A stretch of 19,855 nt of DNA from a virus. Its lineage: Duplodnaviria > Heunggongvirae > Uroviricota > Caudoviricetes. Shown piece by piece: positions 1 to 14,379 of the stretch (its first letter is position 1; the number at the start of each line of letters is the position of its first letter). The translations under genes were made by a program, and so were the position numbers. The notes under the pieces are model-generated. The model was not told the DNA's origin. It was given only the letters and a program-made list of their open reading frames with translations, and ran no database searches. The DNA lies in the IMG/VR virus record IMGVR_UViG_2795385714_000007. The stretch is one strand, 5' to 3'.

Positions 1-210
1 GTGACCGTCACAGAGACTGCGTGTGAAGTAGTGGAGTTGACCTCAGATGAAGGTGCCGAGTTGTTCGACAGCATCGCTCAGAACAACATGGGCATCACAG
101 GGGCGGAGTTTGTGCGACGTTGGAACGCAGGGGAATTTGAAGGGATCAACTGGGACGACGTTCCAGGGCTGACGTCGGTCGCGACGGCGCTGCCTTTCGC
201 AGGCATCTGA
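1..210 (+). CDS. Small acidic protein, putative antitoxin (TumA-like by eye); start may lie upstream of the window
   Basis: 69 aa with 'LFDSIAQNNMGITGAEFVRRWNAGEF', located 17 bp upstream of a toxin-like ORF on the same strand. Confidence 0.5.
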   Translation: MTVTETACEVVELTSDEGAELFDSIAQNNMGITGAEFVRRWNAGEFEGINWDDVPGLTSVATALPFAGI

Positions 211-227
211 GAGACACGTTTGCCAAA

Positions 228-797
228 GTGCCTGGTCGCACCCCTCACGACGCGATCCGTAATTACATAGATCCGCTTCAACAGGCGGTTTCATGTTTAG
301 GGTGCGCCAAGATCCAACTTTCACAAACGCCCAAGAGGTACGGCGAATTCGGAGCATGGATCCTCAACGGGGGCAACGGAATGGTGCTCCGAGGATTCGG
401 TAAGTTCTACGCCACCCAGCGGTTTGAGTTAGTTCCTACGACAGCGGATCTGCACGATGCTCCTGAAAAGGAGCCCTTTCGGGTTTCGACGCGCGAATAT
501 ATCTACCGACTCGAAATTGCTAATGAGAGTCATGTCATCGAATGGCACTGGCACCCGGTAGGGAACAGCGACGAGCGGCGCCCCCACATCCACCCTGCAA
601 TCAACCGGGATGCGCATCTCCCCGGTCCCCGGGTGGTGCTGGAAGACGTAATAGAGGGCTGTATCGCACTAGGCGCGACACCTGCCTGCGAGGACTGGAA
701 AGAGCGGCTAGCCGCCAGCGGTGGCGTCCACAAGCTGTACAGGACATGGGTCCACGAGCCTGGCGATCTAAAGAAGCCTGCAGTAAAAGAGGACTAG
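228..797 (+). CDS. Putative toxin/defence protein with His-rich motifs (DUF6516/TumE-like by eye)
   Basis: 189 aa with 'YIYRLE...IEWHWHP...PHIH...HLPGPRVVLEDVI'. Protein-like composition. The family assignment is tentative. Confidence 0.55.
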   Translation: MPGRTPHDAIRNYIDPLQQAVSCLGCAKIQLSQTPKRYGEFGAWILNGGNGMVLRGFGKFYATQRFELVPTTADLHDAPEKEPFRVSTREYIYRLEIANESHVIEWHWHPVGNSDERRPHIHPAINRDAHLPGPRVVLEDVIEGCIALGATPACEDWKERLAASGGVHKLYRTWVHEPGDLKKPAVKED

Positions 798-1007
798 CTA
801 GCTTTCACGTGGTCCCGAACTTGGGACGCGTGAGCGCCAAGAGCCGCTGAGGCCGCCGGGAGAGGGCCACATCGCACCAGCAGCCGGTTTCACCTTCCGT
901 GGATCGTGTTGGTGGCGAATAAAAAACGGGATTTCAGTGACGGTTGGGTGTTGAAAACAAATTGGGGCAGGGGGGGCGTTTGCCTAAGCCATGAGGGGCG
1001 GGCGCCG

Positions 1008-1037
1008 GACCCCTCGGGTTCACTCCCCCGGGGGGTC
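1008..1037. terminator. GC-rich hairpin spanning the stop codon of the 248-aa gene
   Basis: gacccctcggg (1008-1018) pairs with cccggggggtc (1027-1037) with one imperfect pair. No U-tract. Lies between convergent transcription units. Confidence 0.4.
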
Positions 1038-1766
1038 GTCGTGGAGTGCGGCTTGTCCGAGGCGCTCGACGTAGCCGCTGACGGTGGGCAGCACTGGCCG
1101 AAATCCGCAGCGGGCCACGTGCCAGGCGTCGCGCAGATCAGACTTGTTCTTGGCGCGGGCGGCGACGATGCGTGCAGCGGAGGCATCGCCGTTAGGGATC
1201 AACGTGTGGGCGCGGTCGCCACCGATCCCGGCAGATTGCAGCAGCGCGCCGAGTCCTTCGACGGCGTAGCCGAATCGTTCGCGCGCCACGAGGGCTTCGG
1301 ACCATGCGATGACGGCTTTCGGTCCGGCCTTGGTGATCGTCGGCCCGTCGTTGAGGTCATCGGTCGGGATCACTTCAGCGGCAGCTTCAAGCGAATTAGC
1401 GTATGGTTCAAGGGATTTAGACCACTGGGCCAATATGGTGTCGGCGTGAGCGTTGAGCGCCTCACCGATCGTGCGCCCCTCCTCGTCCTTGGCGGCGCGG
1501 TCTAGGCCGAGCTGCGCAAGCATGTGGTCAAGAAGGTGGCCGGTTACCACAGGGTCAGCGTGGTAATCCTGGTCCTTCTTCATGCAGCTGAGCACGGAGT
1601 ACCTGAGGGCGTCCGCGCTGCCAGCACCGATCTGCGCCTTCTCGACCAACGCTCGGGCCGAGGCCACAGCCTCTACGAATGGATCGGGCAGCGGAATTTC
1701 AAGGCGTTCGGCGGCGCGTTGCACCTGGACGAGGTAGGAACGGGTTGTGGCGGTGTAGACGGACAT
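1020..1766 (-). CDS. Hypothetical, probably alpha-helical protein; last gene of the divergent operon
   Basis: 248-aa ORF with an AGGAG Shine-Dalgarno (taggagacaaacacATG) directly after the upstream gene's stop. Confidence 0.75.
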   Translation of the reverse strand: MSVYTATTRSYLVQVQRAAERLEIPLPDPFVEAVASARALVEKAQIGAGSADALRYSVLSCMKKDQDYHADPVVTGHLLDHMLAQLGLDRAAKDEEGRTIGEALNAHADTILAQWSKSLEPYANSLEAAAEVIPTDDLNDGPTITKAGPKAVIAWSEALVARERFGYAVEGLGALLQSAGIGGDRAHTLIPNGDASAARIVAARAKNKSDLRDAWHVARCGFRPVLPTVSGYVERLGQAALHDDPPGE

Positions 1767-1777
1767 GTGTTTGTCTC

Positions 1778-2077
1778 CTAGTAGTTTTCGTTGAAAGCGA
1801 TTTCGCCGGTTAGGGCTTCGCGCAGGAAGTTGATTTCGACTTGACGCGGGTGTTTCCGGGGCCGGTGATTGTTGCCCTCGCCCGGTACGTAGTTGGACGA
1901 TTCAGGCTGCGGTGCGGGAGGAGTGCCGAGGCGTTCGTAAAGACGCTTAAGGTCCTCGGAATCGGCACTGTCCGTTGCGGTCTCGTCGCCACGCAGTCGC
2001 CGTAGCAGATCGGTGGCAGGGGCTTCGGTGTCACTGTTGAGCTGCTGTAGCACCTGCTTCCAGTCGGGTTTATCCAT
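1778..2077 (-). CDS. Hypothetical protein (99 aa, MDKPDW...)
   Basis: The ATG at 2077 overlaps the end of the HTH gene (stop 2070-2072). The longer 1778..2257 ORF would overlap that gene extensively. Confidence 0.65.
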   Translation of the reverse strand: MDKPDWKQVLQQLNSDTEAPATDLLRRLRGDETATDSADSEDLKRLYERLGTPPAPQPESSNYVPGEGNNHRPRKHPRQVEINFLREALTGEIAFNENY

Positions 2078-2432
2078 GTGGTTCTTGCCTTTCGTCGAAG
2101 ATCCAGCGCCCGCCGACTTTGCGTTGCCCGGATTTGAGTGCGTGGCGGCGGATGGTGCGGGGCGAAACTCCAAGGCGCTCAGCCCTTTGTTGCACTGTCT
2201 CCAATTCTGCTCCCGCCGTTTCGGGGTGTCCAGAAACCTGTCCGCTATCGGACACACTGCGCTGCAACGCTTCCCATGTTCGATGCAAGGCCGGTGGGAT
2301 CGGGGTGCCTTGGCGGCGACGGCGCGCTAGTTCCTCCCCGAGCACCCATGCGGCGGTGCGAAGATCCCGCACGCTGACCACGCGGTGCTCTCCCGTGGCG
2401 CATTGGGTGCAAGGCTGCGCTGTCGTGCTCAT
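2070..2432 (-). CDS. HTH DNA-binding protein (C-terminal excisionase/MerR-like HTH), 120 aa
   Basis: ATG at 2432 overlaps the whiB stop (ATGA). C-terminus 'ETVQQRAERLGVSPRTIRRH...RKVGGRWIF'. Confidence 0.75.
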   Translation of the reverse strand: MSTTAQPCTQCATGEHRVVSVRDLRTAAWVLGEELARRRRQGTPIPPALHRTWEALQRSVSDSGQVSGHPETAGAELETVQQRAERLGVSPRTIRRHALKSGQRKVGGRWIFDERQEPHG

Positions 2433-2752
2433 GCCGCCCCCGTCGCCTCGTCCTGGCCGTCTTTGGTGGTGATTTCCTGCTTCTTTCGCGGCGGGTACGA
2501 GTTGACCACCACGGCGGCGGTAACCCCGAGCGGCCGCTGCTCGTGCGGCAGGGAATCGAACCACTCCCGGCACGAGGCCAGCGCAGGGCATTGGCGGCAT
2601 ATCCGCGTCGCTGCCTGGCGGGCGTAGTCGCGCTCGTCCAGGGCGCCTCGGCCATCGCCGATAGCGGCGTCGAACAACTCGTGCCGTCCCCGGCAGCGCG
2701 CCCCAGGCAGTACAGGCGTGGCTAGTTCGGCCAGCAGCGTGTCCCAGTTCAC
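2429..2752 (-). CDS. whiB: WhiB-family Fe-S transcription regulator (phage type)
   Basis: GTG at 2752 overlaps the upstream stop (GTGA) and has a GGAGG SD. Four Cys arranged C...CxxC-x5-C ('ARCRG...ICRQCPALASC'). The GVWGG turn is replaced by GVTAA. Confidence 0.8.
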   Translation of the reverse strand: MNWDTLLAELATPVLPGARCRGRHELFDAAIGDGRGALDERDYARQAATRICRQCPALASCREWFDSLPHEQRPLGVTAAVVVNSYPPRKKQEITTKDGQDEATGAA

Positions 2753-2955
2753 CGCGCCCCCTCCTGGTCCTGAGCATCTGTTTCGTTGAGTGCTTGTGCG
2801 GCAGCCCAATTGCCGTGTCGTGGGCAGTCGGTGAGGTTGTCCAGGCGCCCGTAGTCGTCACAGTGTGGGCAGTTGCGTATCTGCCGGATCGCTTCGCGGC
2901 GGGTGTTGGCGCGCTCGCGTGTCTTGCGGCAGTGTGCGCAGTAGCGGCAGGACAT
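2749..2955 (-). CDS. Small Cys/His (zinc-binding-like) protein, paralog of the Rep C-terminal domain
   Basis: 68 aa with CxxC...CxxCDDxGR...CPRH. Start overlaps the rep stop (TGATG). Confidence 0.7.
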   Translation of the reverse strand: MSCRYCAHCRKTRERANTRREAIRQIRNCPHCDDYGRLDNLTDCPRHGNWAAAQALNETDAQDQEGAR

Positions 2956-3749
2956 CAGGCGGTTCTCCCTCCCTGGGCTTGCGCCCAGCTGACGTGACGC
3001 GGGCAGGGCTTGAGTCCGTCATCGACTTCGATCCGGCCCAAGTCGTCGCAATCCGGGCAGTCCCGAATCACCTGCACGGCTGCGCGTTTGCGTTCGGCCT
3101 CCGACGCCGTGGCAGCCTTGCGCAGCGCTGCGCAGTCGCGGCAGCTCTCACCCACCCAGGCATCAGGTGCGATGTGCGCGTGCTTGGCGCAACGCGTCCC
3201 CGTCTCATTGCCGTTAGCTGATTGCCGCCCTCGGCTGGCGGGGGTGATCGCGTAGGCGTCCGGGTCGTCAAGTTCCGTACCCCCATAACGCAACCCCCTC
3301 TTTTGATGTGGTCCTGATGTGGTGGGGGGCACCGCCGTGCGGGTCAAAGAGGCACCGCCGTACGGGCTATCGGACCGTTGACCCGCACCGCTGTGCGGGC
3401 TTTGGCTGTTTTGACCCGCACGGCCATGCGGGGTATCACCGTTTTGACCCGCACCGCCATGCGGGGTATTTGCGATCGGAACCAGCCGATACACGGCGGC
3501 ATGACGCTTGAATCCGTTTGCTGTGCGCTGGATGAGCCCCAGCTCGCGGCCTCGCTTGAGCGCCGTTTCCACAGCCCGTTCGGTGAGCCCGCATTTCCGC
3601 ATGAGCCCTTCTATTCCAGGCCGCGCGTTGGTGCCGTCCGCGTAGTCGGCGAACGTCTCAAGCGCCAGGAGAACTATCCGCTGGGCCAACGTCAGGGCCT
3701 TGGCCCCGAGAACATAATCGCGCCAGTCACGGCGCTGCTCTGGCGTCAC
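2955..3749 (-). CDS. Replication initiator: N-terminal winged-HTH, repeat linker, C-terminal Cys/His domain
   Basis: 'LTLAQRIVLLALETFAD...ARPGIEGLMRKCGLTERAVETALKRGRELGLI' is typical of phage/plasmid initiator wHTH domains. Internal DNA repeats sit where lambda-O-type iterons occur. Confidence 0.75.
   Translation of the reverse strand: MTPEQRRDWRDYVLGAKALTLAQRIVLLALETFADYADGTNARPGIEGLMRKCGLTERAVETALKRGRELGLIQRTANGFKRHAAVYRLVPIANTPHGGAGQNGDTPHGRAGQNSQSPHSGAGQRSDSPYGGASLTRTAVPPTTSGPHQKRGLRYGGTELDDPDAYAITPASRGRQSANGNETGTRCAKHAHIAPDAWVGESCRDCAALRKAATASEAERKRAAVQVIRDCPDCDDLGRIEVDDGLKPCPRHVSWAQAQGGRTA
3325..3469. repeat. Iteron array / putative origin of replication inside rep
   Basis: TTGACCCGCA-N6-TGCGGG at 3378, 3411 and 3444 (33-bp period), a degenerate copy near 3349 and an inverted half-copy tgcgggtcaaa at 3338-3348. 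Confidence 0.8.
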
Positions 3750-3964
3750 GGTAAGCCGCCCTGTGCGTCAGCAGGCAATGCACGGCTTCGGCTAGCGCGC
3801 ACGCTGGCGTGCAACTGGGCCGCGCGATGCACGTCGCAGCGCACAACAGGGCGCACACCATCACGCACCGTGACGCACAACTCGTGCACTCCCCCAGGCC
3901 CATCGGGCAGCCGACCAACAAGCCCGCCGCCCAATGGTGCCCGTGCGCACTCACGCAGAGGCAT
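3746..3964 (-). CDS. Hypothetical protein
   Basis: 72 aa. Stop overlaps the rep GTG (GTGA) and it fills the operon gap. No recognisable motif. Confidence 0.4.
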   Translation of the reverse strand: MPLRECARAPLGGGLVGRLPDGPGGVHELCVTVRDGVRPVVRCDVHRAAQLHASVRASRSRALPADAQGGLP

Positions 3965-4000
3965 CGCGCTCCACCGCGTGATGAGTGCAATCTGTTCCGA

Positions 4001-4498
4001 TCACAAGGACTCCACGACCTCAGCGGCGGCGCGCAGCGCATCAGTCAGGCGTCGCGCCGCGCTCGCTTCCATCCAGTCCTCGACACCATTGACCCAACGC
4101 ACGCCCCACTCAACCGAACCATCTGCGGCCTGCTGGGTGCCCTCTATGAGCACATGCCCCAAGCCCTCGCCCACCTCGAACCGGGCGCCCTCTAGCCTGC
4201 GCCCCCAGTCCGGCGATTCCTTAGAGCCCATGTTCATCCACTGGTCAGCATGTGAGGCTTGAGCTGGGATCGGCACATGCGCGAACCGGATACCAGCTTG
4301 ATGCGTCTCGATATCGAGGGTGATCTTGAAAAGGAGACTCAACGCTGCGTTGTCGGCCTGACTCGTGGCCCGCCATGGCGTGACCCCAGCCGCCGCCAAC
4401 TCCTCGGCGCGCTCCAACTGCGCTACCCAGTCAGCCGGTAGTCGATCAACCAAGTCACGCCATGTCCGGGTGTCGTCGCCAAATTCGATCTGTACCAT
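4001..4498 (-). CDS. Hypothetical protein
   Basis: 165-aa ORF, co-directional with the operon, purine-rich SD region (agaaagtaggt). Confidence 0.65.
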   Translation of the reverse strand: MVQIEFGDDTRTWRDLVDRLPADWVAQLERAEELAAAGVTPWRATSQADNAALSLLFKITLDIETHQAGIRFAHVPIPAQASHADQWMNMGSKESPDWGRRLEGARFEVGEGLGHVLIEGTQQAADGSVEWGVRWVNGVEDWMEASAARRLTDALRAAAEVVESL

Positions 4499-4503
4499 GA
4501 GAT

Positions 4504-4797
4504 TTACCTACTTTCTGTTGATGGTTGGTTGCAGCGGCTCCCGCCCGACGTTGCCGCGTCGGGGACTACGGGGGCCGTTGGCATAGCCGAACTTGTGCCG
4601 ACGAGCTGAACTTGTGCGCGATATTCGCGCTTGGCCCCGTCAGCGTCGGTCACGGTCACCGTGATCACATCGCCCTCGGCCTCCACGCTGGCCGTGGAAT
4701 TCGGAACCACCTTGCCATCCCGAATAATGCATGGCGACAAGGGAACCCACGGCTCTTGCGCTAGCCGCGCCGCGATCCTGTACGCCTCGATACTCAC
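4504..4797 (-). CDS. Hypothetical protein
   Basis: GTG start overlaps the xis stop (GTGA), 97 aa. Confidence 0.55.
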   Translation of the reverse strand: MSIEAYRIAARLAQEPWVPLSPCIIRDGKVVPNSTASVEAEGDVITVTVTDADGAKREYRAQVQLVGTSSAMPTAPVVPDAATSGGSRCNQPSTESR

Positions 4798-4961
4798 GCC
4801 GCGCCTTCAAGCTTGGCGATGTACTCGTTGATCTGCCTGTCAGTGCTGAATCGGCGCTTACCAATCCTCACGCTGGCGAGGGCACCAGAGTGCCAGAGCT
4901 GGAACACCAGCGTTCTGCTGATACCTCCGAGCTTTGCCCCCACTGCCTTGTGGTCGTGCAT
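4794..4961 (-). CDS. xis: Excisionase/AlpA-like HTH protein (55 aa, below the ORF-track cutoff)
   Basis: Hand translation: MHDHKAVGAKLGGISRTLVFQLWHSGALASVRIGKRRFSTDRQINEYIAKLEGAA. Strong SD (GGAGGAGG). First gene divergent from the repressor. Confidence 0.8.
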   Translation of the reverse strand: MHDHKAVGAKLGGISRTLVFQLWHSGALASVRIGKRRFSTDRQINEYIAKLEGAA

Positions 4962-4989
4962 TGCGTCCTCCTCCGTTCATGGCTGCTTG

Positions 4990-5005
4990 TGCGTTCAAAC
5001 ACGCA
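4990..5005. promoter_or_regulatory. Putative repressor operator TGCGT-N6-ACGCA (copy 1)
   Basis: tgcgttcaaacacgca, 28 bp upstream of the xis start. Confidence 0.5.
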
Positions 5006-5075
5006 GACATCCGATAAGTTGCGTTTCTGCGACTCAATAGATACCAGGCGGATGGCAATGAACGCAAGCAGTGCA

Positions 5076-5096
5076 TATCCTGCGTGTCATGACGCA
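5076..5096 (+). promoter_or_regulatory. -10 box of a leaderless repressor transcript plus operator copy 2
   Basis: TATCCT (5076-5081) ends 7 nt before ATG 5089. tgcgtgtcatgacgca (5081-5096) covers the start codon. Confidence 0.5.
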
Positions 5097-5664
5097 ATCA
5101 GGGCCGAAAAGGCCGAGTTGGACGGAACGGCCGCCCGACAGCTGGGCGGAACGTGAAGCGCATAGATTGGCGCGCGAGGTTTACCGGCTTCGCGGAAAGA
5201 GGTCAGCGCAGTGGCTTGCGGCTCGGACCAAGGAACTCGGCCACGAAGTATCCCGTTCGGTGATTTCCGATTTGGAGAATGGGCGACGTAGGTATGTCAC
5301 GACCGCTGAGCTAGTAATACTCGCTGCCGCACTCGATACGTCCCCAGTAACGCTGATGTACCCCGGCCCGTATTCCGATTCGGTGGAATTTCTACCTGAA
5401 CGAGAAGTTCCGGAATTCGATGCAGCGCAGTGGTTTTCGGCAAACGGGTGGTCGCAAGAGCTAGCGAGTGCGTTCGACGGCGATTTCGGATTTGCTTGGC
5501 GCACAGATCAGCTTCGCCAATGGCGACGCCTGGCGGAATTGGAAGATGCCCGCGCCCGCGTGACGGCGCGAGCCGAACTTGACCGTGACCGCGATCAAAT
5601 CGAAATGTACGACAGAATGATTCGCGAATTGTGGCAACAAATCGAGGGTAACGAGGATGCCTAG
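5089..5664 (+). CDS. XRE-family HTH repressor
   Basis: 'SAQWLAARTKELGHEVSRSVISDLENGRRRYVTTAELVILAAALDTSPVTL'. Overlaps the integrase start and is divergent from xis. ATG at 5089 preferred over 5071. Confidence 0.85.
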   Translation: MTQSGPKRPSWTERPPDSWAEREAHRLAREVYRLRGKRSAQWLAARTKELGHEVSRSVISDLENGRRRYVTTAELVILAAALDTSPVTLMYPGPYSDSVEFLPEREVPEFDAAQWFSANGWSQELASAFDGDFGFAWRTDQLRQWRRLAELEDARARVTARAELDRDRDQIEMYDRMIRELWQQIEGNEDA

Positions 5665-6820
5665 GCAGCGGCTCGCTCCGGGGGAGCACGGCAAGATCAC
5701 CGAACGGGTAAGTGGTCGAATGTTTTTCGCTTCTACCTACGTGCGTGACTCTGATGGCAAGCGGCGACGAGTAGAGCGGTCCAGCGAGAAATCTGCCGAG
5801 GATGCGCGGCGCGCGCTCCAGCGGCACTTGAACGCCCGACGCGCGCCGCTCTCCGGGCAACTGGTGACAGAAAAAACCGCCCTCACTGACTTGTTCGATC
5901 TGTGGATCGAAGCAAAGGCAGCCGAGGACGGCGTTCTACAGCAGACGGTAGACCAGTATCGGGCGGTATGGAAAACCCATGGCGCCGCCCAGTTGGGCTC
6001 CCTAAGGGTCACGGAGTTACGCACCCAATCGGCGCACAACTATCTACAGGGGATGGGGGCAACGACTCAGGCCAAGCGGCTGCGCACGGTGCTGTCGGGA
6101 ATGTTCTCGATGGCCGTTAGATTCGATGTCCTACCGGTGAACCCGATCCGCGAGGCGAAGCCGGTCAAAACGACGCGTAAGCCAGCTCGCGCGGCTACAG
6201 CAGCTGAGTTCCGGCAGATCCGGGCTGCCGTCCAGGCGTACTCGACTCGGAAAGGTTCCGGGCCGCGTCCTGGCCGACTTCTCGCCGCATTCATTGACGT
6301 GTTGGTGGCGACAGGTTGCCGACCCAGCGAAGTACTAGCTACGAGGTGGTCTGATGTTGACCTGTTGGCGGACCCACCTACCCTGACGATTACCGGGACG
6401 TTGATCGACCACGGGCGCATCGTGGGTAAGCCACTGCACCGGCAGGACCACCGCAAGCACCATGCTCCCCCGCACACCGTTGTTCTACCCAAGTTTGGTG
6501 TTGAGACCCTCACGGAGCTTGTCGGAGAGTCCGGTATGGAAGGCCCAGTGTTCGCCAATCGTCAGGGCGGCTGGATGTCCCTAGCCAACATGCGTCGGGC
6601 TCTGCGTGCAGCTCTGCCGGATGAACTGAGCTGGGTCACGCCGCACTCGTTCAGACGCACGGTCGCCACCGTTGTCCGTGATGCTCACGGCCCTGATAAG
6701 GCGCAGCAGCAGCTCTCCCATTCCAAGTTGGCCACCACCGAGGCGCATTACTTAGAGCGCCAGACCCGAGGCCCCGATGTCCGAGCGGCTTTGGAGCAGT
6801 TCGCTGAAAGTGGCGGCTAA
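5657..6820 (+). CDS. int: Tyrosine integrase with N-terminal arm-binding domain
   Basis: Catalytic motifs TGCRPSE (R), PHSFRR (HxxR), LSHS (H), EAHY (Y). 387 aa, ending 67 bp from the att core. Confidence 0.95.
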   Translation: MPRQRLAPGEHGKITERVSGRMFFASTYVRDSDGKRRRVERSSEKSAEDARRALQRHLNARRAPLSGQLVTEKTALTDLFDLWIEAKAAEDGVLQQTVDQYRAVWKTHGAAQLGSLRVTELRTQSAHNYLQGMGATTQAKRLRTVLSGMFSMAVRFDVLPVNPIREAKPVKTTRKPARAATAAEFRQIRAAVQAYSTRKGSGPRPGRLLAAFIDVLVATGCRPSEVLATRWSDVDLLADPPTLTITGTLIDHGRIVGKPLHRQDHRKHHAPPHTVVLPKFGVETLTELVGESGMEGPVFANRQGGWMSLANMRRALRAALPDELSWVTPHSFRRTVATVVRDAHGPDKAQQQLSHSKLATTEAHYLERQTRGPDVRAALEQFAESGG

Positions 6821-6840
6821 AAGTGGAGGGAAAGTATCAG
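6807..6840 (+). repeat. Putative integrase arm-type binding sites
   Basis: Three direct 10-mers between the int 3' end and the core: aaagtggcgg (6807), aaagtggagg (6820), aaagtatcag (6831). Confidence 0.5.
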
Positions 6841-6887
6841 ATTCCGGGCGTGTCACGCACTCCGTAACGCGTATTTGCACTGATAGA

Positions 6888-6924
6888 TGGTGCGCCCGAA
6901 GGGATTCGAACCCCTAACCTTCTG
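6888..6924 (-). other. att core: 3' half of a tRNA (Arg-ACG-like) including CCA
   Basis: Minus strand reads CAGAAGGTTAGGGGTTCGAATCCCTTCGGGCGCACCA (T-loop GTTCGAATC, CCA end). Similarity decays in the anticodon arm and there is no 5' half. Confidence 0.9.
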
Positions 6925-8531: not shown

Positions 8532-9716
8532 TCAGCGACCGGCGGCCACGAGCATTGCGTCCACACCGGTGGCTGCGAACTCGTTGGAGCGGTCGACGTC
8601 GGCAATCAGTTGGGCGTAGGAGGTGACGGCTTGCATTACGCCGCCTGCGGTCATCTGGCTGCCCTTGATGAAGTGGTCGAGGATGCCGCGCTGTTCGTCC
8701 TGGCTGTAGGACAGCTTCTTGGCCACGACCTCGATCACATCAGCCGGTGCGGTGAGCGGGGTGCCGCTGGTCTCCTCCAGCTTCTCGATAGCGGTCTTCA
8801 CGTAGTCGACGTTCATGAAGGACGCGACGGCGTCACGGACCTGCTTCTTGATCAGGTCGTTGGCGGCATCGATGGTGTCGGCCGACCAATTCACCTTGCC
8901 GTCGTCGAGCTTCTTGCCCAGGTGGATCTTGCGCATGGCGTCGGCGTTGATGGTGAGGCCGTTGTCGCAGATCCTGATGCGCAGCTCTGGGGTGATGGTC
9001 AGTGCGCCGCCGCCGGTCTCGCTGTTGGTGACCAGCATTCCGGCGTAGACGACCGGCAGAGTGTTGGCAGCTTCGCCTCCGTGCGCGGTGCCTGCCCAGG
9101 GTGAGCGGTAGCCCTCCAGCAGCTTGGGTGCGACGACCTCCAGCTCGGGTGCGGTGACCCGCAGGTACAGCCGCTCGTCGGACAGGTCAGCGCCGCGGAT
9201 GTGCTGGGCGCCGAGACCGGCCGCGCGCATGCCGTCTAGCAGCGCAAGCACGGTGTCTAGGTTGTCGCGGATGCCGTACCGGTCGGACAGCACGGCGCGG
9301 ACGATGCCGTGGGTGCCCGGGTACATGGGGTCGCTGCCGGACAGCATGCGCACGAGGACCTTCTTGGCGGGGTCGTGGACCCGAGCCAGCTCGTTGACGT
9401 TGGTGTCCATCAGCTCCAGGTGCTGTGCACGCAGCTTGCGGACGTAGCGGGTGGGGATGTCGAGGACGTCGCCGAGCTGGCTGTCGGAGCGGTCGGTCAT
9501 CCGGTAGGTCCCGTTGAAGTCGGTGACGCCTTCGTCGTTGATGTCGGGTGCCTGATCCGAGATGACCAGGTTGCCGCTGGTGAAACGGACGTCAGAGACG
9601 GGCATGACGACGTCCACCTTCTGGCGGTGCTGCTGCTCCAGCAGCGTGATGAGGTCGCCGACGTTGGCGTTGCGCAGGGTGCGGGCGGGCACTGCGGGCA
9701 GTGTTGGAGCGGTCAT
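8532..9716 (-). CDS. DUF932-like protein (394 aa)
   Basis: 'RAVLSDRY..RDN', 'NSETGGGAL.ITP..RIRICDNG...KIHLG' resemble the DUF932/DUF945 pattern. AGGAGG SD before ATG 9716. Confidence 0.72.
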   Translation of the reverse strand: MTAPTLPAVPARTLRNANVGDLITLLEQQHRQKVDVVMPVSDVRFTSGNLVISDQAPDINDEGVTDFNGTYRMTDRSDSQLGDVLDIPTRYVRKLRAQHLELMDTNVNELARVHDPAKKVLVRMLSGSDPMYPGTHGIVRAVLSDRYGIRDNLDTVLALLDGMRAAGLGAQHIRGADLSDERLYLRVTAPELEVVAPKLLEGYRSPWAGTAHGGEAANTLPVVYAGMLVTNSETGGGALTITPELRIRICDNGLTINADAMRKIHLGKKLDDGKVNWSADTIDAANDLIKKQVRDAVASFMNVDYVKTAIEKLEETSGTPLTAPADVIEVVAKKLSYSQDEQRGILDHFIKGSQMTAGGVMQAVTSYAQLIADVDRSNEFAATGVDAMLVAAGR

Positions 9717-9755
9717 GGGTTCCTCCTGATTTGTGTTTGCCTTACTGGTAGATCG

Positions 9756-9785
9756 AATGTATAGCGCACTATACGTTTTAGGCAA
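9756..9785 (-). promoter_or_regulatory. SigA-like promoter containing operator GTATAG-N4-CTATAC (9759-9774)
   Basis: Minus strand TTGCCT-18 bp-TACATT, with the palindrome spanning the spacer and the -10. Confidence 0.65.
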
Positions 9786-9808
9786 GCATGAAAAGGAATA
9801 AAGCGAGA

Positions 9809-9835
9809 AACCCCCGCCCATTTAGGGCGGGGGTT
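9809..9835 (-). terminator. Intrinsic terminator after the 102-aa gene
   Basis: 11-bp stem aacccccgccc / gggcgggggtt with a T-rich tail on the minus strand. Confidence 0.8.
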
Positions 9836-9851
9836 ATCAGTAACCGGAAGT

Positions 9852-10160
9852 TCAGGTGGGGATCACACCGGGCCAAAAGTGGATGCGACCTTGGCGGTGG
9901 CACGGCCCAAGGGATTCGATGGCCCGGCGGATCGCGTAAACGTCGTCACCTCCCCGCCTGGCCGCGAGGACGACAGCGACCTCGTATCCGAACTCGACTA
10001 CCCGGTCGCCGCGGTAGGCAAGGCACGGCGGCCGGTGGCCGCGGCCCACCCAGTCGAATGCCGGGCGTACATCCGAGTGTGGTTCGTGAGCCAGCATGGA
10101 GCGGTTGACCGTATCCAGCTCGTCCGAGGTCAGTGCGATTGCAGTGCTTGCAATTGACAT
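9852..10160 (-). CDS. Hypothetical protein (102 aa)
   Basis: Has its own SD (AAAGGAAGG), promoter and terminator. Confidence 0.7.
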   Translation of the reverse strand: MSIASTAIALTSDELDTVNRSMLAHEPHSDVRPAFDWVGRGHRPPCLAYRGDRVVEFGYEVAVVLAARRGGDDVYAIRRAIESLGPCHRQGRIHFWPGVIPT

Positions 10161-10199
10161 GATGGAGCCTTCCTTTGTGTTCGCTGAGAATTTCGATTG

Positions 10200-10228
10200 A
10201 ACGTATAGCGTGCTATACGATATGTCGA
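10200..10228 (-). promoter_or_regulatory. SigA-like promoter containing operator CGTATAG-N4-CTATACG (10202-10219)
   Basis: Minus strand TCGACA-17 bp-TACGTT, in the same register as the 9756-9785 promoter. Confidence 0.65.
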
Positions 10229-10282
10229 GGGGCTGGCCGTCAAGGCTCCACTACATCGGCTGCCCCGGTTTAGAGTTCCGCC

Positions 10283-10735
10283 ATGAGAATTAGGCGGGGG
10301 CTATGCATCGTGGTGGCAGCGGCTGCGATGGCGGGGTGCGGCGGTGCACCGACGGAGAAGACGCCAACTACATCCACGGCGCAGAAACCGGCGATACTGC
10401 CCCAGACGTCGGTCGACATGGAGGGCTGGAAGGCCGAAATACTTGCCGCCAGCCCGGAGGCATCACCCGACATGGCACGCATGTACGAGCTGACGGTGAG
10501 CAACTGCGACAAGACCGTCGACGAGTTCGAGTCGATGATCGCCGCCGACACCGACGGCACCATGGCTATCGTCCGCCGGGGCATGCGTTACGTGTGCCCC
10601 ACCCGCCTGGAAAGGGTTAACCAGGCCCAGTCCAACAACAACCAGGGCAGCCGAGATGTGGACCGAGCATGCGCCACCTCGCCCGACAACCGGACACCAC
10701 GGGAGCAGGATCTAGCCGCCGCCGCCGGTTGTTAG
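10283..10735 (+). CDS. Putative lipoprotein
   Basis: Basic N-terminus, hydrophobic stretch, lipobox-like MAG-C, Thr/Pro-rich linker, four further Cys. Confidence 0.75.
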   Translation: MRIRRGLCIVVAAAAMAGCGGAPTEKTPTTSTAQKPAILPQTSVDMEGWKAEILAASPEASPDMARMYELTVSNCDKTVDEFESMIAADTDGTMAIVRRGMRYVCPTRLERVNQAQSNNNQGSRDVDRACATSPDNRTPREQDLAAAAGC

Positions 10736-10888
10736 CGCAACCCCTGCATACCGCCCGTGACGGTGCAGCCATGCCCCGCTTACTGCGCGAATATCCTCGT
10801 TTGGCTGGACGCCAGCCAATTCCTACTACTACGCTCCCAGTAGCCAATCAGCCGGACTAGAGGCCGGTTCTAATTAATTGCGCCGGGG

Positions 10889-11215
10889 GTGTTGATGTCG
10901 GGCGACGAGAACGTTCTCAAGGTTGACCTTTCGGCTTTGGGCAAGCTCGGCCCTCACCTGCGGACACTCGCCGATCAACTCACAGGTAGCGTCGCGGCCA
11001 ATGTTGCGCCCCCGGCAGGTGCTGATCCGGGATTGGCGGCGCTGTACGGGGTGTCCAAGGCCATCGCGGACGTGAAGCGGATCGGGGCCGCGCGGTTGAA
11101 CACCATCGCTGATTTCGCCGATGAGGCTCAGCAGGCTTTCGCGATCACGGAGAGTTCACTGGCGGCCGGGTACGGCAATCTACCCAGCATCTATCAGCCA
11201 CCGAAGCGGGCATAG
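10889..11215 (+). CDS. Small ESX (type VII) substrate-like protein (WXG100/EspC-like)
   Basis: 108 aa helix-turn-helix-like ('VDLSALGKLGPHLRTLADQL...ADFADEAQQAFAITE'), directly upstream of the WXG toxin. No literal WxG motif. Confidence 0.7.
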   Translation: MLMSGDENVLKVDLSALGKLGPHLRTLADQLTGSVAANVAPPAGADPGLAALYGVSKAIADVKRIGAARLNTIADFADEAQQAFAITESSLAAGYGNLPSIYQPPKRA

Positions 11216-11223
11216 GGGCACTC

Positions 11224-13419
11224 GTGGTGACGCCGCTGGATGAGTTCATGGCCAAGAAAGCCAATGACTACATGGCGGTGGTGGATACCTGGCGACCGCA
11301 AACCCGGCAGTTCAAGGAGACCTACGACGAGTACAAACGTTGGGTCGGGGCTCCAAATGGCACGGAGTGGACCGGGCGCACCTCGAACGCAGCCTATGAC
11401 ACGGCATCCACCGATTGCCACGGCTCGGATAACACCGACGACGCCGCCGAAGACGGCGGAAAACTCGTCGCCGCCACCATCCAATACGAAGTCGTCGAGC
11501 CACTGGTCAACGGCCAACGCCTCATCGAGAGCGTGCTGGCGCACAAGGACCAGGGTGTCTCGATCGATCAGAGCTACAACATGGCCTATCACCCGGCCGA
11601 GGGTGAGAGCGATGAGTCGATAGCAAAGAACCGCGAACATGTGGCCGACATCGAGCGCCAGGTCAAAGGGTATGTCGCCCAGTGGGACAAGGGCTGTCAA
11701 ACCCTCAAGGCCCAGGCTGACGCCATAGCCCAGAAGATCACCGGCTGCATCAACCCTAAAACCGCCCTGGTCGATGGCCGCAAGATTCTGCGCGACGCCG
11801 CCGCCACACCCGCCGAACCGACTGCCCAGCCCGCCAACTTCTACAAGGACTGGTACCCCAAGGCCACCGACCCGGCCAGCACGCAGGCCGCAGCCGCTAC
11901 CGCTGCCGATCCGCATGCACCCGTGCTGGGTCCGCCCTCGCCCGGCGACAAGCCCTTCCAACCCGATCCACGTGCAGGTGGCCTCACCGACAAACTGGGC
12001 GTGATGGGCATTACCGAGCCCAAGAGCCCTCTGGATAAACCGCCGCCGCCACCGGATGCGCGCACGGTGCCCGCGCCCAAGCTGGACCCCAACACTCCCC
12101 AGGGCAAAGCGGCCATCGACAAGTTCCGCAGCATCTTGGCCACGCAGTATCCGCCTGATCAGGTGGAGGCCAAGCTGTCCGAGGCCATCAAGGGCGCCCA
12201 GCAGGACCGGCCCATGGTCGCAACACCCGAACCCGGCACACCCGAGCGTGTCCGGCAATCAGGTGGTGGGGCATTCGCCGAGTCGTGGGATCAAGCTGGC
12301 CGCGCCAAGGATGACCTGCTGGGAATCAACGGCGGCGACCACGCCAAAGAGGCGTGGAAGGGCGTCGCTAAGGGGCTATGGGATGTGGTCAACCCCGATC
12401 CCGTCCACCAGGTGGAACGCGGGATCGACCAGGCTAAGGGCGCTATCGATGAGGTCAAATCCGGCATCGACAACCCCAAAGCCTTCATCGGCAAACACGG
12501 AATCGAAATCGCCGCAGGCATCGCAACAGCACCCGTGGGCGGCGAAGGCGCACTACTCGGCACCGAAGGCCGCGCCCTCACCCACGGACTCGAAGACGCT
12601 GCGCCAGGGCACCCGCCCACCCCGCACACCGCTGAACCCCACACACCAGTCACAGGACACGCGCCCACCGAACCGCCAAGCGGCACAACACATCCCGCAC
12701 CAACAGTGGACCACCCGGCACCCGCAGCAGATCACAATGGCGGCGGAAATCACGGCATTCCCGCCAACATCGAACACGCTGCCGGACTCCCCCGCTCAGC
12801 CGACGACATCCTCAACGACTCACGCGCCGCACACCGCTTCGAACGCGACCAACTCGACTGGGACAGAGGCGAACAGAACCTCGCTGACCTCGCAGCCCAC
12901 CGGGGCGTGCACGTCGACGATCTACCGCGCACCCCGGTGTACGACGTTGACCACCCGGCGTACACCGACAAGCACGCTGCCGACCACTCGGCTGAGATCG
13001 ACCGACACACACAGCTGTGGGAACACGGCCTCAACACCCAAAGCGTCCAACAAGTCCTCGACAATATGGAGGCAACGCGACCGCCATCCTCTGACCTGCG
13101 AAGTGACTTGCGCACAGAGCTGGGAGTGCGTGGAACGCAAGACCTTATCGATGCCGGTTACAGTCCGATGGAGGCTGACAGGCTCGCGAACAACTACGCG
13201 TCGGAGCAATTCCCCGAAGGCCCCGGACTAATTCCGCAGCCTGTGATCCATAACCCGGATATCAAGTTCGGCGGGTACCGCGACGGCCTGACTTATGGTG
13301 ACTGGCAAGTCAACAACGCGCTTGGTAACTTGACGAAACAGGAGAGAGACGCCTTCAAGGCATGGCTTGAAACCCAAGATCCGAACGCGATAGTAAACAC
13401 CAGATTTGGCAAAAGGTGA
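11224..13419 (+). CDS. ESX-secreted polymorphic toxin: WXG N-terminus, Pro/His-rich linker, Tde1/Ntox15-like DNase tip
   Basis: WTG at 11368-11376. C-terminal 'IHNPDIKFGG...GDWQVNNALG' carries the HxxD motif (13249-13260). Followed by a GAD-like immunity gene. Confidence 0.85.
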   Translation: MVTPLDEFMAKKANDYMAVVDTWRPQTRQFKETYDEYKRWVGAPNGTEWTGRTSNAAYDTASTDCHGSDNTDDAAEDGGKLVAATIQYEVVEPLVNGQRLIESVLAHKDQGVSIDQSYNMAYHPAEGESDESIAKNREHVADIERQVKGYVAQWDKGCQTLKAQADAIAQKITGCINPKTALVDGRKILRDAAATPAEPTAQPANFYKDWYPKATDPASTQAAAATAADPHAPVLGPPSPGDKPFQPDPRAGGLTDKLGVMGITEPKSPLDKPPPPPDARTVPAPKLDPNTPQGKAAIDKFRSILATQYPPDQVEAKLSEAIKGAQQDRPMVATPEPGTPERVRQSGGGAFAESWDQAGRAKDDLLGINGGDHAKEAWKGVAKGLWDVVNPDPVHQVERGIDQAKGAIDEVKSGIDNPKAFIGKHGIEIAAGIATAPVGGEGALLGTEGRALTHGLEDAAPGHPPTPHTAEPHTPVTGHAPTEPPSGTTHPAPTVDHPAPAADHNGGGNHGIPANIEHAAGLPRSADDILNDSRAAHRFERDQLDWDRGEQNLADLAAHRGVHVDDLPRTPVYDVDHPAYTDKHAADHSAEIDRHTQLWEHGLNTQSVQQVLDNMEATRPPSSDLRSDLRTELGVRGTQDLIDAGYSPMEADRLANNYASEQFPEGPGLIPQPVIHNPDIKFGGYRDGLTYGDWQVNNALGNLTKQERDAFKAWLETQDPNAIVNTRFGKR

Positions 13420-13422
13420 TTT

Positions 13423-14070
13423 GTGGCCGACGAATACTTTGAGTACTTCCTAACGAAGTTCCCTCTCTCAACCAGCGGACCTGCGTGCACCGATGAACAC
13501 GTGCGCGACTACACCGGGCTGGTTCCTGATTGCCTTATCTCGTATTGGCAGGAGTACGGGTTCTCTGGCGTTGGCAACGGAATCGCCTGGCTTGTTGATC
13601 CAATCGAGTGGAAGGTCACCACCGACGAGGTCCTCCTCGACACCCTCCGACACCCTCGCCTAGACGAAAACGCGCTGTATATCCCGTTCCTACGTAGCGC
13701 CTTCGGGAAGACGTTCTTCTGGACCCCGGGGTATGGAATGTCGATAACCGTTGAGCCCGCCCGGGGATCGGCATTTTTCTGGGCACCCCCGAAAGACTCG
13801 TCGCCACAGAGCCTTGAACGCGCAATGCAGGCTTTCTTCACGGCTGCAAGGAAAGACCAGTTCGACTTCCGCGGGCGCGATGAGGAACCCATGTTCGATC
13901 GGGTGTATGAGCACCTGGGGCCGTTGCAGTTCGACGAGGTGTATGGGTTCGCGCCTGGTCTACGAATTGGCGGTGCTGCGATTGTGGAGAGCACGCACTT
14001 GTTCCAGATTCACGTGCACATGGCGTTCCTGCGTACGGCAATCGGAGACGACTGGTACGTCGCGGGCTAG
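13423..14070 (+). CDS. Immunity protein, GAD-like + DUF1851 (Tdi1-like)
   Basis: 'LVPDCLISYWQEYGFSG..NGIAWLVDP' (GAD-like) and 'FDRVYEHLGPLQFDEVYGFAPGLRIGG' (DUF1851-like). Starts 3 bp after the toxin stop. Confidence 0.85.
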   Translation: MADEYFEYFLTKFPLSTSGPACTDEHVRDYTGLVPDCLISYWQEYGFSGVGNGIAWLVDPIEWKVTTDEVLLDTLRHPRLDENALYIPFLRSAFGKTFFWTPGYGMSITVEPARGSAFFWAPPKDSSPQSLERAMQAFFTAARKDQFDFRGRDEEPMFDRVYEHLGPLQFDEVYGFAPGLRIGGAAIVESTHLFQIHVHMAFLRTAIGDDWYVAG

Positions 14071-14077
14071 CACCCGC

Positions 14078-14299
14078 TCAGGAGATAGAGCCGTCCACGA
14101 TTTTGTAGATACTGTCACGTTTTACCTCGGCATCACGTGCCAGCACAGTGGCGCCGACACCCAACGCCTTGGCCTGTTTGACGGCCTCGTAGAACTCGGT
14201 GTCGGTCTGCTTGCGCAACACAGCCTGACGTCGACGGCGGCGGGCTAGCCGACGGACAGAAGCTCGGGCCGCCTCCTGCTCGTCCGACGAGATATCCAT
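14078..14299 (-). CDS. Small HTH DNA-binding protein (candidate repressor of the GTATAG-N4-CTATAC sites)
   Basis: 'GVGATVLARDAEVKRDSIYKIV' HTH after an amphipathic, Arg-rich helix. Confidence 0.75.
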   Translation of the reverse strand: MDISSDEQEAARASVRRLARRRRRQAVLRKQTDTEFYEAVKQAKALGVGATVLARDAEVKRDSIYKIVDGSIS

Positions 14300-14305
14300 G
14301 CGCGC

Positions 14306-14322
14306 AGTATAACGCGCTATAC
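14306..14322 (-). promoter_or_regulatory. -10 box (TATACT) of a leaderless transcript overlapping operator copy 3
   Basis: gtataacgcgctatac at 14307-14322 (one mismatch). TATACT on the minus strand ends 6 nt before ATG 14299. Confidence 0.65.
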
Positions 14323-14353
14323 ATATGCGGAGACAACCGGCTGGTACGGGAAA

Positions 14354-14379
14354 ACGCCCCGGCCCGAAGGCCGGGGCGT
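14354..14379 (-). terminator. Intrinsic terminator ending the late/lysis operon
   Basis: 11-bp stem with cUUCGg tetraloop and TTT tail on the minus strand. Confidence 0.9.

Follow-up and report, generated by a model that had tools for sequence, protein, structure and literature searches.

Results

The palindrome GTATAG-N4-CTATAC, which recurs in predicted promoter cores of an M. abscessus prophage of Cluster MabK, most likely serves as the docking site for a small repressor encoded by the phage. On balance, we favor the reading that it would be the operator of a second MabK repressor circuit, separate from the immunity switch, with a 73-aa protein as its likeliest binder. The DNA analyzed here (the window; 19,855 nucleotides, IMG/VR record IMGVR_UViG_2795385714_000007) is the right arm of such a prophage. 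Its closest relatives are prophiGD43A-5 and prophiT37-1, its nearest provirus is G001, and a divergent related prophage, L102, was included in the MabK-type comparison.

The palindrome lies in three predicted promoters of the window

Three sites had been reported in a preliminary description of this DNA, and our motif scan found the same three:

9759..9774, putative operator copy A, GTATAG-CGCA-CTATAC, promoter of the DUF932-like gene
10203..10218, putative operator copy B, GTATAG-CGTG-CTATAC, promoter of the 102-aa gene
14307..14322, putative operator copy C, GTATAA-CGCG-CTATAC (one mismatch), promoter of the 73-aa gene

At up to one mismatch, these three matches compare with 0.01 expected in the window, and 0 of 200 shuffles reached that number. 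Allowing up to three mismatches added no site in the window. The earlier statement that there are no other copies thus holds within the window but not beyond it, as whole relatives hold three more. The symmetry of copy B reaches 10202-10219 (CGTATAG..CTATACG), and the extended consensus is AAC-GTATAG-N4-CTATAC-GTT. As described before, each site stands 5' of a minus-strand open reading frame:

8532..9716, minus strand, 394-aa DUF932-like protein, phrog_1362; 42-nt leader with AGGAGG
9852..10160, minus strand, 102-aa gene; 42-nt leader with a ribosome-binding site
14078..14299, minus strand, 73-aa protein, candidate regulator; predicted long helix (5-45) and helix-turn-helix (HTH; 50-57, 61-69)

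For the first gene, a longer 429-aa frame was rejected and the start placed at the ATG at 9716, behind AGGAGG. The 394-aa protein matches phrog_1362 (E 1.5e-97) and has homologues in 244 phage records. The Atlas feature search placed it with DUF932 clusters at 0.97, in which just 16-30% of the members carry the family, and a Pfam search (E 0.01) returned no match, PF06067 included. No family was found for the 102-aa protein in Pfam, PHROGs, or the Atlas; its L102 homologue is 73% identical and lies behind the same putative operator.

Promoter and terminator elements around the sites were then read from the sequence:

9756..9785, minus strand, predicted SigA-type promoter A: TTGCCT (9780-9785), 18 nt, TACATT (9756-9761)
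10200..10228, minus strand, predicted SigA-type promoter B: TCGACA (10223-10228), 17 nt, TACGTT (10200-10205)
14306..14311, minus strand, predicted -10 hexamer TATACT of the 73-aa gene
~9795..9835, minus strand, GC-rich terminator-like hairpin with a short T tail, after the 102-aa gene and 5' of promoter A
14348..14379, minus strand, GC-rich hairpin and short T tail at the end of the lysis operon, 5' of promoter C

The last five palindrome bases and one further T make up the TATACT of the 73-aa gene, which ends only 6 nt from the ATG and so predicts a leaderless mRNA. Counterparts of this gene in L102 and in the Cluster Y phages Bipper and Typha share its arrangement (TA[TG]ACT, 7 nt, ATG). 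The elements proposed to insulate each gene from upstream transcription are present: hairpins 5' of promoters A and C and a divergent plus-strand gene 5' of promoter B. A terminator scan placed its site after the 102-aa gene at 9819-9801 on the minus strand, while the hairpin at 14348-14379 fell below the T-run rule of that scan. The leader said to be shared by the first two genes, AACACAAA, was found at 9730-9737 and 10174-10181, but relatives keep it only partly, as GCRAACAY.

Six conserved copies make up the set in complete prophages

prophiGD43A-5 contains exactly six copies, its mismatch spectrum being four sites at zero, two at one, none at two, and five at three mismatches, and prophiT37-1 and G001 carry six copies each. 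Beyond the window, one site each precedes a BrnT-like toxin-antitoxin pair, the gene 55-66 block, and an unannotated gene that encodes a secreted protein and adjoins the tRNA/Ro-like cassette. The idea of a three-gene circuit defined by the toxin cassette is therefore abandoned. Nor does the notion that the sites straddle this cassette survive: in relatives, the cassette between copies B and C is swapped or inverted while the sites stay where they are, so that the straddling is incidental.

At all six sites, the predicted context (-35, 17 to 18 nt, -10) fits SigA, although the -35 match is weak at site E. The promoter of gene 55 in prophiGD43A-5 (site F), TCGACA-17-TACAGT, has a layout identical to that of promoter B and was the sole promoter reported by a consensus promoter scan of that region. 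The palindrome spans the spacer and the first -10 bases, about -26 to -11 from the predicted start. Four copies lie 7 to 10 nt before an ATG that has no ribosome-binding site, which predicts leaderless genes, and two lie 42 nt before an ATG with a ribosome-binding site.

All 16 bases of copy A are invariant in 8 distinct relatives, compared with 87% mean identity in the 40-nt flanks. The 12 specified bases of copy B are likewise invariant in 8 distinct relatives, its N4 center varying, and copy C occupies the same place in 7 distinct relatives, with position 11 alone varying (C/T/G). Overall, five of the six sites show no variation in the 12 specified bases (4 to 8 distinct relatives), while the N4 center and the flanks vary, and L102 keeps all three right-arm sites. 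Dyad symmetry is thus combined with conserved half-sites and a free center, as in a dimeric operator; at the level of sequence, invariant half-sites next to drifting centers and flanks are the signature of a dimeric DNA-binding protein. From its conservation and promoter context, the palindrome appears to behave as a conserved protein-binding operator within promoter cores.

It is very improbable that the palindrome is no regulator site at all and represents instead a junction at which cassettes recombine or are exchanged, an RNA hairpin, or a shared promoter sequence. Such readings could draw on the differing cargo between sites B and C among relatives, on the everted sequence GCTATAC-CGCG-GTATAGC, which forms a terminator-like hairpin 3' of the unannotated gene in prophiGD43A-5, and on 33 REP-like elements with the same core in Rhodococcoides kyotonense. 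However, the swap boundaries lie off the palindromes, and the 150-aa gene at site B and the HTH gene at site C are kept. The spacing to the -35 and -10 elements and to the start codons is fixed, which points to transcription control, and the left half-site is invariant, even though SigA spacers are not normally conserved. As RNA, the sites would give only a weak hairpin (-5 to -8 kcal/mol), which at site C is not the favored structure, and no Rfam match was found.

The 73-aa protein is the likeliest binder

The 73-aa gene is its own unit between a terminator and a convergent immunity gene. The AlphaFold2 model of its product (pLDDT 92.8) has a three-helix fold with a recognition helix, and its predicted HTH superposes on that of IstA at 0.7 A rmsd over 34 residues. 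Fold matches of the HTH are the IstA and resolvase HTH domains, with weak E-values; the Aca11 structure appears among the weak fold matches of the protein, and some small HTH matches resemble sigma-70 region 4. In the AlphaFold DB, small HTH-named proteins and clusters have the same shape (TM 0.8 or more). By sequence, the protein matches PHROG HTH families at an E value of 4e-4 and no Pfam or NCBIfam family at threshold, and its relatives match HTH_7, HTH_23, and HTH_31 below threshold only. The L102 counterpart is 62% identical over a full-length alignment. The earlier view of this small protein as an HTH protein is upheld by a confident prediction, and in every relative its gene has a predicted leaderless promoter with a copy of the site. 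The copy at the 73-aa gene itself is the least perfect in the window (one mismatch). In addition, all seven IMG/VR contigs with several copies encode a 73-aa-type protein directly behind a copy, in line with the expected co-occurrence; because the MabK-type genomes are all close kin, these cases are only weakly independent.

Another phage protein could bind the palindrome as a repressor, the 73-aa gene being merely one regulated member; we consider this unlikely. Further candidates are a TetR-like gp116 homologue adjoining the integrase, the HTH protein gp46, a larger HTH protein common to Cluster Y, and the antitoxin of the BrnT pair. Several more DNA-binding proteins are indeed annotated in prophiGD43A-5 and conserved in prophiT37-1, L102 retains a 99-aa gp116-like gene, and the toxin-antitoxin promoter carries a perfect copy; antitoxins often repress their own promoters. 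Yet no homologue of the MabK antitoxin gp49 was detectable in the Bipper and Typha loci examined, where motif promoters are present, and in Bipper the stretch from the DUF932-like gene to the integrase, the place expected for gp116, contains no other gene. Apart from the BrnT antitoxin, the alternative binders have no copy at their own promoters, whereas every lineage carries one at the small HTH gene.

A related arrangement is found in Cluster Y phages

The Cluster Y phages Bipper (KU728633) and Typha (MK494099) resemble MabK in that the lysis cassette is immediately followed by a small gene for a homologous HTH protein, behind a predicted leaderless promoter with a 6-4-6 palindrome. Their homologue is 29% identical to the 73-aa protein (E 1e-3, pairwise). 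In Bipper, a perfect GTCTAG-AGAG-CTAGAC lies 8 nt before the ATG of this gene, while only the right half of the palindrome (GAGCTAGAC) is intact in Typha. Eight further Bipper promoters carry GTCTAG-TGAG-CTATA, giving nine in total in one orientation, with sites also in the right arm. Among the genes they precede are gp49, a DUF932-like protein 55% identical to the 394-aa protein, and a gene annotated as a BrnT-like toxin, without sequence similarity to the toxin of the MabK pair. Unlike in MabK, where the half-site is GTATAG, the Cluster Y half-site is GTCTAG and the right half at target promoters is CTATAA. Protein and half-site thus differ together between the two groups, which amounts to two states of co-variation. 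Our literature search found no published description of such a switch for this phage group, and the papers searched do not describe the Cluster Y arrangement.

Few copies are found in the related bacterial genomes sampled

That a host transcription factor binds the sites and places the phage units under host control seems quite improbable to us. An identical palindrome does occur in Rhodococcus-type chromosomes, as a tandem of GTATGG-N4-CTATAC and then GTATAG-N4-CTATAC about 20 nt 5' of an operon for a 135-aa membrane protein and a 66-aa XRE regulator, so that cellular regulators of this specificity probably exist. However, the named homologues of the 66-aa regulator come from Rhodococcus, Nocardiaceae, Microbacterium, Arthrobacter, and Corynebacterium, and none from Mycobacterium or Mycobacteroides. 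An exact copy was absent from 376 of the 401 family genomes sampled, 23 had one to three copies, and the scan of these 401 related genomes gave no sign of a widespread host regulon. Scanning IMG/VR with GTATAG-CG-NN-CTATAC returned several copies at MabK-like positions in MabK proviruses only. Finally, in the Cluster Y phages, whose host differs, the motif shifts along with the phage protein.

Discussion

A model for a proposed second circuit

In the circuit that we favor, the 73-aa protein, encoded just after the lysis cassette, would bind as a dimer to six predicted host-type (SigA) promoters. Because the palindrome covers the spacer and the first -10 bases, the bound dimer would block RNA polymerase, and since the leaderless promoter of the 73-aa gene itself holds one copy, the protein may repress its own synthesis. 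Five other units would be kept low, namely, the DUF932-like gene, the 102-aa gene, the BrnT-like pair, the secreted-protein gene, and genes 55-66. The timing would be a burst of expression in a cell without the 73-aa protein, followed by throttling. RNA-seq of the GD43 lysogen showed most of prophiGD43A-5 to be silent, the toxin-immunity locus excepted (PMC8092301), which agrees with promoters of constitutive appearance being kept off.

This silence argues against a role of the 73-aa protein as an activator or dual regulator that would switch the six units on together, a reading that we regard as improbable. Sequence does not tell positive from negative control, several imperfect hexamers occur among the -10 and -35 elements (e.g., TACGTT and TTGCCT), and the small HTH matches resembling sigma-70 region 4 would also suit an activator. 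But coverage of the spacer and -10 is the classical position for steric repression, not activation, and the spacers are 17 to 18 nt, compared with 19 to 20 nt in MerR-type activation.

More broadly, it is possible, and we put it forward only tentatively, that MabK and Cluster Y share a portable accessory-gene regulon. An autorepressor of 70 to 85 aa from an uncharacterized HTH family would gate changing stand-alone cargo through one operator class, independently of lysogenic immunity; expression would pulse when the phage enters a naive cell and be throttled in lysogens. The cargo of the proposed regulon would include the toxin-antitoxin pair, the Ro/tRNA cassette, the DUF932-like gene, and secreted proteins.

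Interest in M. abscessus prophages stems from how they affect virulence, phage resistance, and phage therapy. A second repressor circuit over six accessory units would help explain why these units look silent in lysogens and when they act. The six units include the toxin-antitoxin pair and genes adjoining the secreted-toxin cassette. The operator-repressor pair, together with the Cluster Y half-site variant, could also serve as compact orthogonal switches in mycobacterial genetics.

Comparison with known systems

The putative operator is distinct from the main immunity region, as had been proposed. In prophiGD43A-5, this region (positions 1-700) has TGCGCA-type repeats, and no GTATAG-like site was found within 1,600 bp, even at three mismatches; this excludes operators of the integration-dependent immunity repressor. 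Stoperators of Cluster A (L5-type) and MabJ phages are asymmetric sites of 13 to 14 bp, oriented with transcription, present in 14 to 30 copies per genome and bound by the immunity repressor (PMC9934374). The MabK sites are similar in that many copies of a short site are dispersed over a mycobacteriophage genome, where one small repressor would bind them. In contrast, MabK prophages have six copies of a symmetric 16-mer, each within a predicted promoter core and none in the immunity region, and a Cluster A-type stoperator system is therefore ruled out.

Aca-type proteins such as Aca1 are tiny HTH autorepressors that bind an inverted repeat overlapping a strong phage promoter and allow an early burst before shut-off. 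A very small predicted HTH protein, an inverted repeat over a predicted phage promoter, and the burst and shut-off that would result are features in common with MabK. However, aca genes share an operon with the genes they control, while the 73-aa gene stands alone as a unit and its putative operator lies over six promoters; we therefore do not assign it to this class. No anti-CRISPR gene was identified, and the 73-aa protein shows no sequence relationship to Aca proteins.

P22 immI (Mnt/Arc) and the dispersed C1 operators of P1 are second repressor-operator circuits whose operators overlap promoters, and like the MabK circuit proposed here, they stand apart from the main immunity repressor of a temperate phage. 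Unlike the predicted HTH protein of MabK, which would target accessory genes, Mnt/Arc are ribbon-helix-helix proteins controlling an antirepressor; the annotated antirepressor gene 6 of prophiGD43A-5 has no operator site. KorA/KorB of IncP plasmids use one operator class in several promoters of a mobile element and are autoregulated, as proposed for MabK, but they differ in protein family, site positions, and plasmid context, and homology is absent. Repression by a dimer bound to a palindrome within a promoter is a textbook mechanism, and the proposed switch would be of an ordinary kind.

Palindrome sites in the window and in complete MabK prophages

A GTATAG-N4-CTATAC palindrome had been described at three promoters of the window, and its placement was exact (A, 9759-9774; B, 10203-10218; C, 14307-14322). 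With at most one mismatch allowed, the window holds these three copies (0.01 expected), a number that was reached in none of 200 shuffles; allowing up to three mismatches added no site within the window. All three lie just 5' of minus-strand ORFs:

true start ATG 9716, after AGGAGG, minus strand: 394-aa ORF (DUF932-like), operator A
9852-10160, minus strand: 102-aa ORF, operator B
14078-14299, minus strand: 73-aa ORF, operator C

The features behind the proposed insulation of these genes are present, namely hairpins 5' of promoters A and C and a divergent gene 5' of promoter B, and so is the common AACACAAA leader. The sites themselves thus stood, but a regulon limited to three promoters did not, since whole-record scans found six sites each in prophiGD43A-5, prophiT37-1, and the nearest IMG/VR provirus, G001. 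Of the matches to the motif in the rebuilt prophiGD43A-5 genome, four were perfect, two had one mismatch, none had two, and five had three. The gap at two mismatches indicates that the operator family is sharply bounded. The three additional sites are as follows:

site D: 10 nt 5' of the ATG of a leftward BrnT-like toxin-antitoxin pair
site E: 48 bp from site D, facing right, 10 nt 5' of an unannotated, leaderless 112-aa ORF with a clear signal peptide (L003:4417-4755, corresponding to 25416-25754 of the prophiGD43A-5 record)
site F: 10 nt 5' of gene 55, the first of a block through gene 66; the terminase gene starts only at 42.5 kb

The 112-aa ORF faces the tRNA-Thr and Ro-like genes located past it, and its start is identical in prophiT37-1 and G001. 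A terminator-like hairpin about 55 nt past this ORF (L003:4810-4827) carries the hexamers in everted order (GCTATAC-CGCG-GTATAGC), which may be chance or an operator relic. Two annotations of prophiGD43A-5 are also likely to be wrong. For the BrnT-like toxin, the probable start is an ATG three codons 5' of the called GTG, 10 nt after the operator (L003:4081-4335), and gene 114 was assigned to the strand complementary to that of the 102-aa ORF (L001:2960-3290). Promoter, ribosome-binding site, and terminator all belong to the strand of the 102-aa ORF, which is also the strand used by prophiT37-1 gene 107.

Genomic setting

From about position 6,900 to its end, the window consists of the right arm of a Mycobacterium abscessus prophage belonging to Cluster MabK. 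The minus-strand order is lysin A, lysin B, holin, a small gene, and the 73-aa gene, after which come a plus-strand lipoprotein/WXG/toxin/immunity cassette and, beyond it, the 102-aa gene, the DUF932-like gene, and a tyrosine integrase adjoining attR. The closest records were prophiGD43A-5 (87% identity over 6 kb) and prophiT37-1, both placed in MabK (PMC8092301, PMC9934374). Left of attR, positions 1-6890 belong to a different integrated element, which also encodes an HTH gene. Similarity of G001 to the window stops at its attR, indicating that the left element is absent there. The left element and the MabK prophage form a tandem insertion at a single att site. Further features of this region are the following:

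2955-3749: replication-initiator-like gene of the left element
5657-6820: arm-type tyrosine integrase of the left element
10283-10735, plus strand: 150-aa ORF with a lipobox-like N terminus, between operator B and the WXG/toxin genes

The 150-aa ORF is retained in prophiGD43A-5 and prophiT37-1, even with the toxin cassette exchanged.

Conservation and promoter anatomy

The 12 specified bases were invariant at sites A, B, D, E, and F (4 to 8 distinct relatives), and at site C position 11 alone varies. The central four bases differ (CGCA, CGTG, CGCG, CACA, CAGA, CGAA) and the flanks drift, the 40 nt upstream of site B showing 68% mean identity. In a more distant prophage (L102, GCA_015023905.1), all three right-arm sites persist amid changed flanks and beside another toxin cassette, and the homologue of the 73-aa protein is 62% identical. 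Invariant half-sites around a free center are what a dimeric DNA-binding protein produces, and are not expected from a SigA spacer or an RNA stem. An RNA-structure reading was rejected, the hairpins being weak and no Rfam family being found.

Once the sites were oriented to their genes, one recurring layout was read from the sequence: a predicted -35-like hexamer (TCGACA, TTGCCT, or TTGTTC, with only a weak match at site E), 17 to 18 nt, and a -10 in which the palindrome's final three bases are joined by three others (TACGTT, TACATT, or TACAGT). For the 73-aa gene, the -10 is displaced by two bases, giving TATACT. The palindrome would therefore fill the spacer and the beginning of the -10. A strict consensus scan reported TCGACA-17-TACAGT at site F as the sole promoter in that region. 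Sites C, D, E, and F lie 7 to 10 nt 5' of the ATG, without a ribosome-binding site, a predicted anatomy that fits the expectation for leaderless mycobacterial mRNAs, and sites A and B lie 42 nt 5' of the ATG, with a ribosome-binding site. We conclude that the palindrome is, almost certainly, an operator that binds a protein within promoter cores.

The silence of most of prophiGD43A-5, the toxin-immunity locus excepted, in published RNA-seq of the GD43 lysogen (PMC8092301) fits constitutive-looking promoters that are held off. Contigs assembled from transcriptomic run X8 span 10337-14317, taking in the complete 73-aa gene, and one terminates within the palindrome, whereas no contig fell on 9624-10235; strand, ends, and level are not given by contigs, and they were counted neither for nor against the operator reading.

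The 73-aa protein as candidate binder

According to the preliminary description, the HTH protein represses its own gene and the others. Its predicted structure, a long helix followed by a helix-turn-helix, was of high confidence (pLDDT 92.8), and its helix-turn-helix can be overlaid on the equivalent motifs of IstA and resolvases. The AlphaFold DB contains many small actinobacterial HTH proteins with the same overall shape, and no curated family reached threshold. The family is tiny: among billions of proteins, wider homologues amounted to three proteins or clusters in a word-based search and five in an exhaustive profile search. Upstream of a distant metagenomic homologue (L105), there is a single, unrelated palindrome. 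In the proposed check on co-occurrence of motif and HTH gene, all seven multi-copy IMG/VR contigs were found to encode the 73-aa protein 7 nt behind a copy.

A main immunity repressor acting on these sites is unlikely, since the immunity region harbors TGCGCA-type repeats and no GTATAG-like site, in agreement with the proposed separation of the two circuits. The MabK attP sits within the immunity repressor gene, which places the main repressor some 70 kb off, at the opposite prophage end.

Additional evidence came from Bipper and Typha, Cluster Y phages of M. smegmatis with broad synteny to MabK. Each has a homologue (83 or 77 aa) in the corresponding place after the lysis cassette, the Bipper protein being 29% identical to the 73-aa protein (pairwise E value, 1e-3). 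A perfect GTCTAG-AGAG-CTAGAC lies 8 nt 5' of the ATG of the Bipper homologue, and in the Typha promoter the right half alone is intact (GAGCTAGAC). Eight further Bipper promoters, three of them in the right arm, carry GTCTAG-TGAG-CTATA, including those in front of the DUF932-like gene and of an annotated BrnT-like toxin, which has no sequence similarity to the MabK toxin. Taken together, these observations link the protein with the 6-4-6 site, with the placement of this site in the protein's own promoter, and with the DUF932-like gene as at least one common target, all of which travel as a set. Furthermore, recognition helix and half-site differ jointly between MabK and Cluster Y, a comparison of only two states. 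Upstream of the DUF932-like genes in VanLee, a Gordonia phage, and in Phrappuccino, there are repeats of other kinds, not the GTATAG motif.

The Cluster Y parallel is the strongest added evidence and, though circumstantial, points to the small HTH protein as the putative binder rather than another factor. The BrnT-pair antitoxin could occupy site D, in its own promoter, but the Bipper and Typha loci examined encode no homologue of it. Similarly, the product of the TetR-like gene beside the integrase is a candidate, but this gene has no Bipper counterpart. On balance, we lean towards the 73-aa protein binding the palindrome as an autorepressor.

Separately, the Bipper promoters are followed by a conserved leader, ACCGGGGCAGGTACCAGACCAGCCCCC, with a GGGGC/GCCCC stem (L100:1900-7000), repeated 5' of genes 42, 43, 44, 45, and 49 and likewise found in Typha; it is possibly a shared 5' UTR element.

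Chromosomal copies of the palindrome

A host factor is another possible binder, and the palindrome does occur in chromosomes. Among 401 sampled genomes of the family, however, 376 had no exact copy and 23 had one to three, and nothing links the chromosomal uses to the phage's host. The host flank of G001 had no close match among these 401 genomes. Among the matches listed for the 14-base form of the motif in bacterial contigs, copies were only scattered, one or two per stretch, in unrelated bacteria.

In nine Rhodococcus-group genomes (L241-L250), the same palindrome immediately precedes the start of a gene for a small membrane protein; it is paired there with a degenerate twin (GTATGG-N4-CTATAC) or occurs as two perfect, abutting copies. 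One locus was examined in full and has this order:

L250:3014-3045: palindrome pair, 5' of a 135-aa membrane-protein gene, then a 66-aa XRE (HTH_3) regulator gene

These genes probably form an autoregulated operon with the half-sites of the phage operator. Named homologues of the XRE regulator included none from Mycobacterium or Mycobacteroides. Two genomes, Rhodococcoides kyotonense (G003) and G041, hold 32 to 33 exact GTATAG-N4-CTATAC copies. In G003, the one examined of the two, the copies (e.g., L230-L239) are the cores of 46-bp perfect palindromes (CTCGTGAGTGAAAAT...ATTTTCACTCACGAG), which are intergenic, some at contig ends, and look like a REP- or MITE-like family. The operon and these repeats indicate that the palindrome sequence serves other purposes elsewhere.

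Comparison with known systems

The two papers describing MabK prophages mention no palindrome and name operators only as MabJ stoperators (PMC8092301, PMC9934374), and literature searches on Bipper promoters and "MabK" returned nothing relevant. The protein family and the regulon are without description in the literature searched; the kind of system is familiar. The present analysis adds the parallel in Cluster Y, the distant prophage L102, the sharp limit in the mismatch spectrum, and the Rhodococcus look-alikes. Unlike a stoperator system, and distinct from the immunity operator set, the proposed MabK circuit is functionally akin to Aca-type autorepressors, to P22's second immunity region, and to the global regulons of plasmids.
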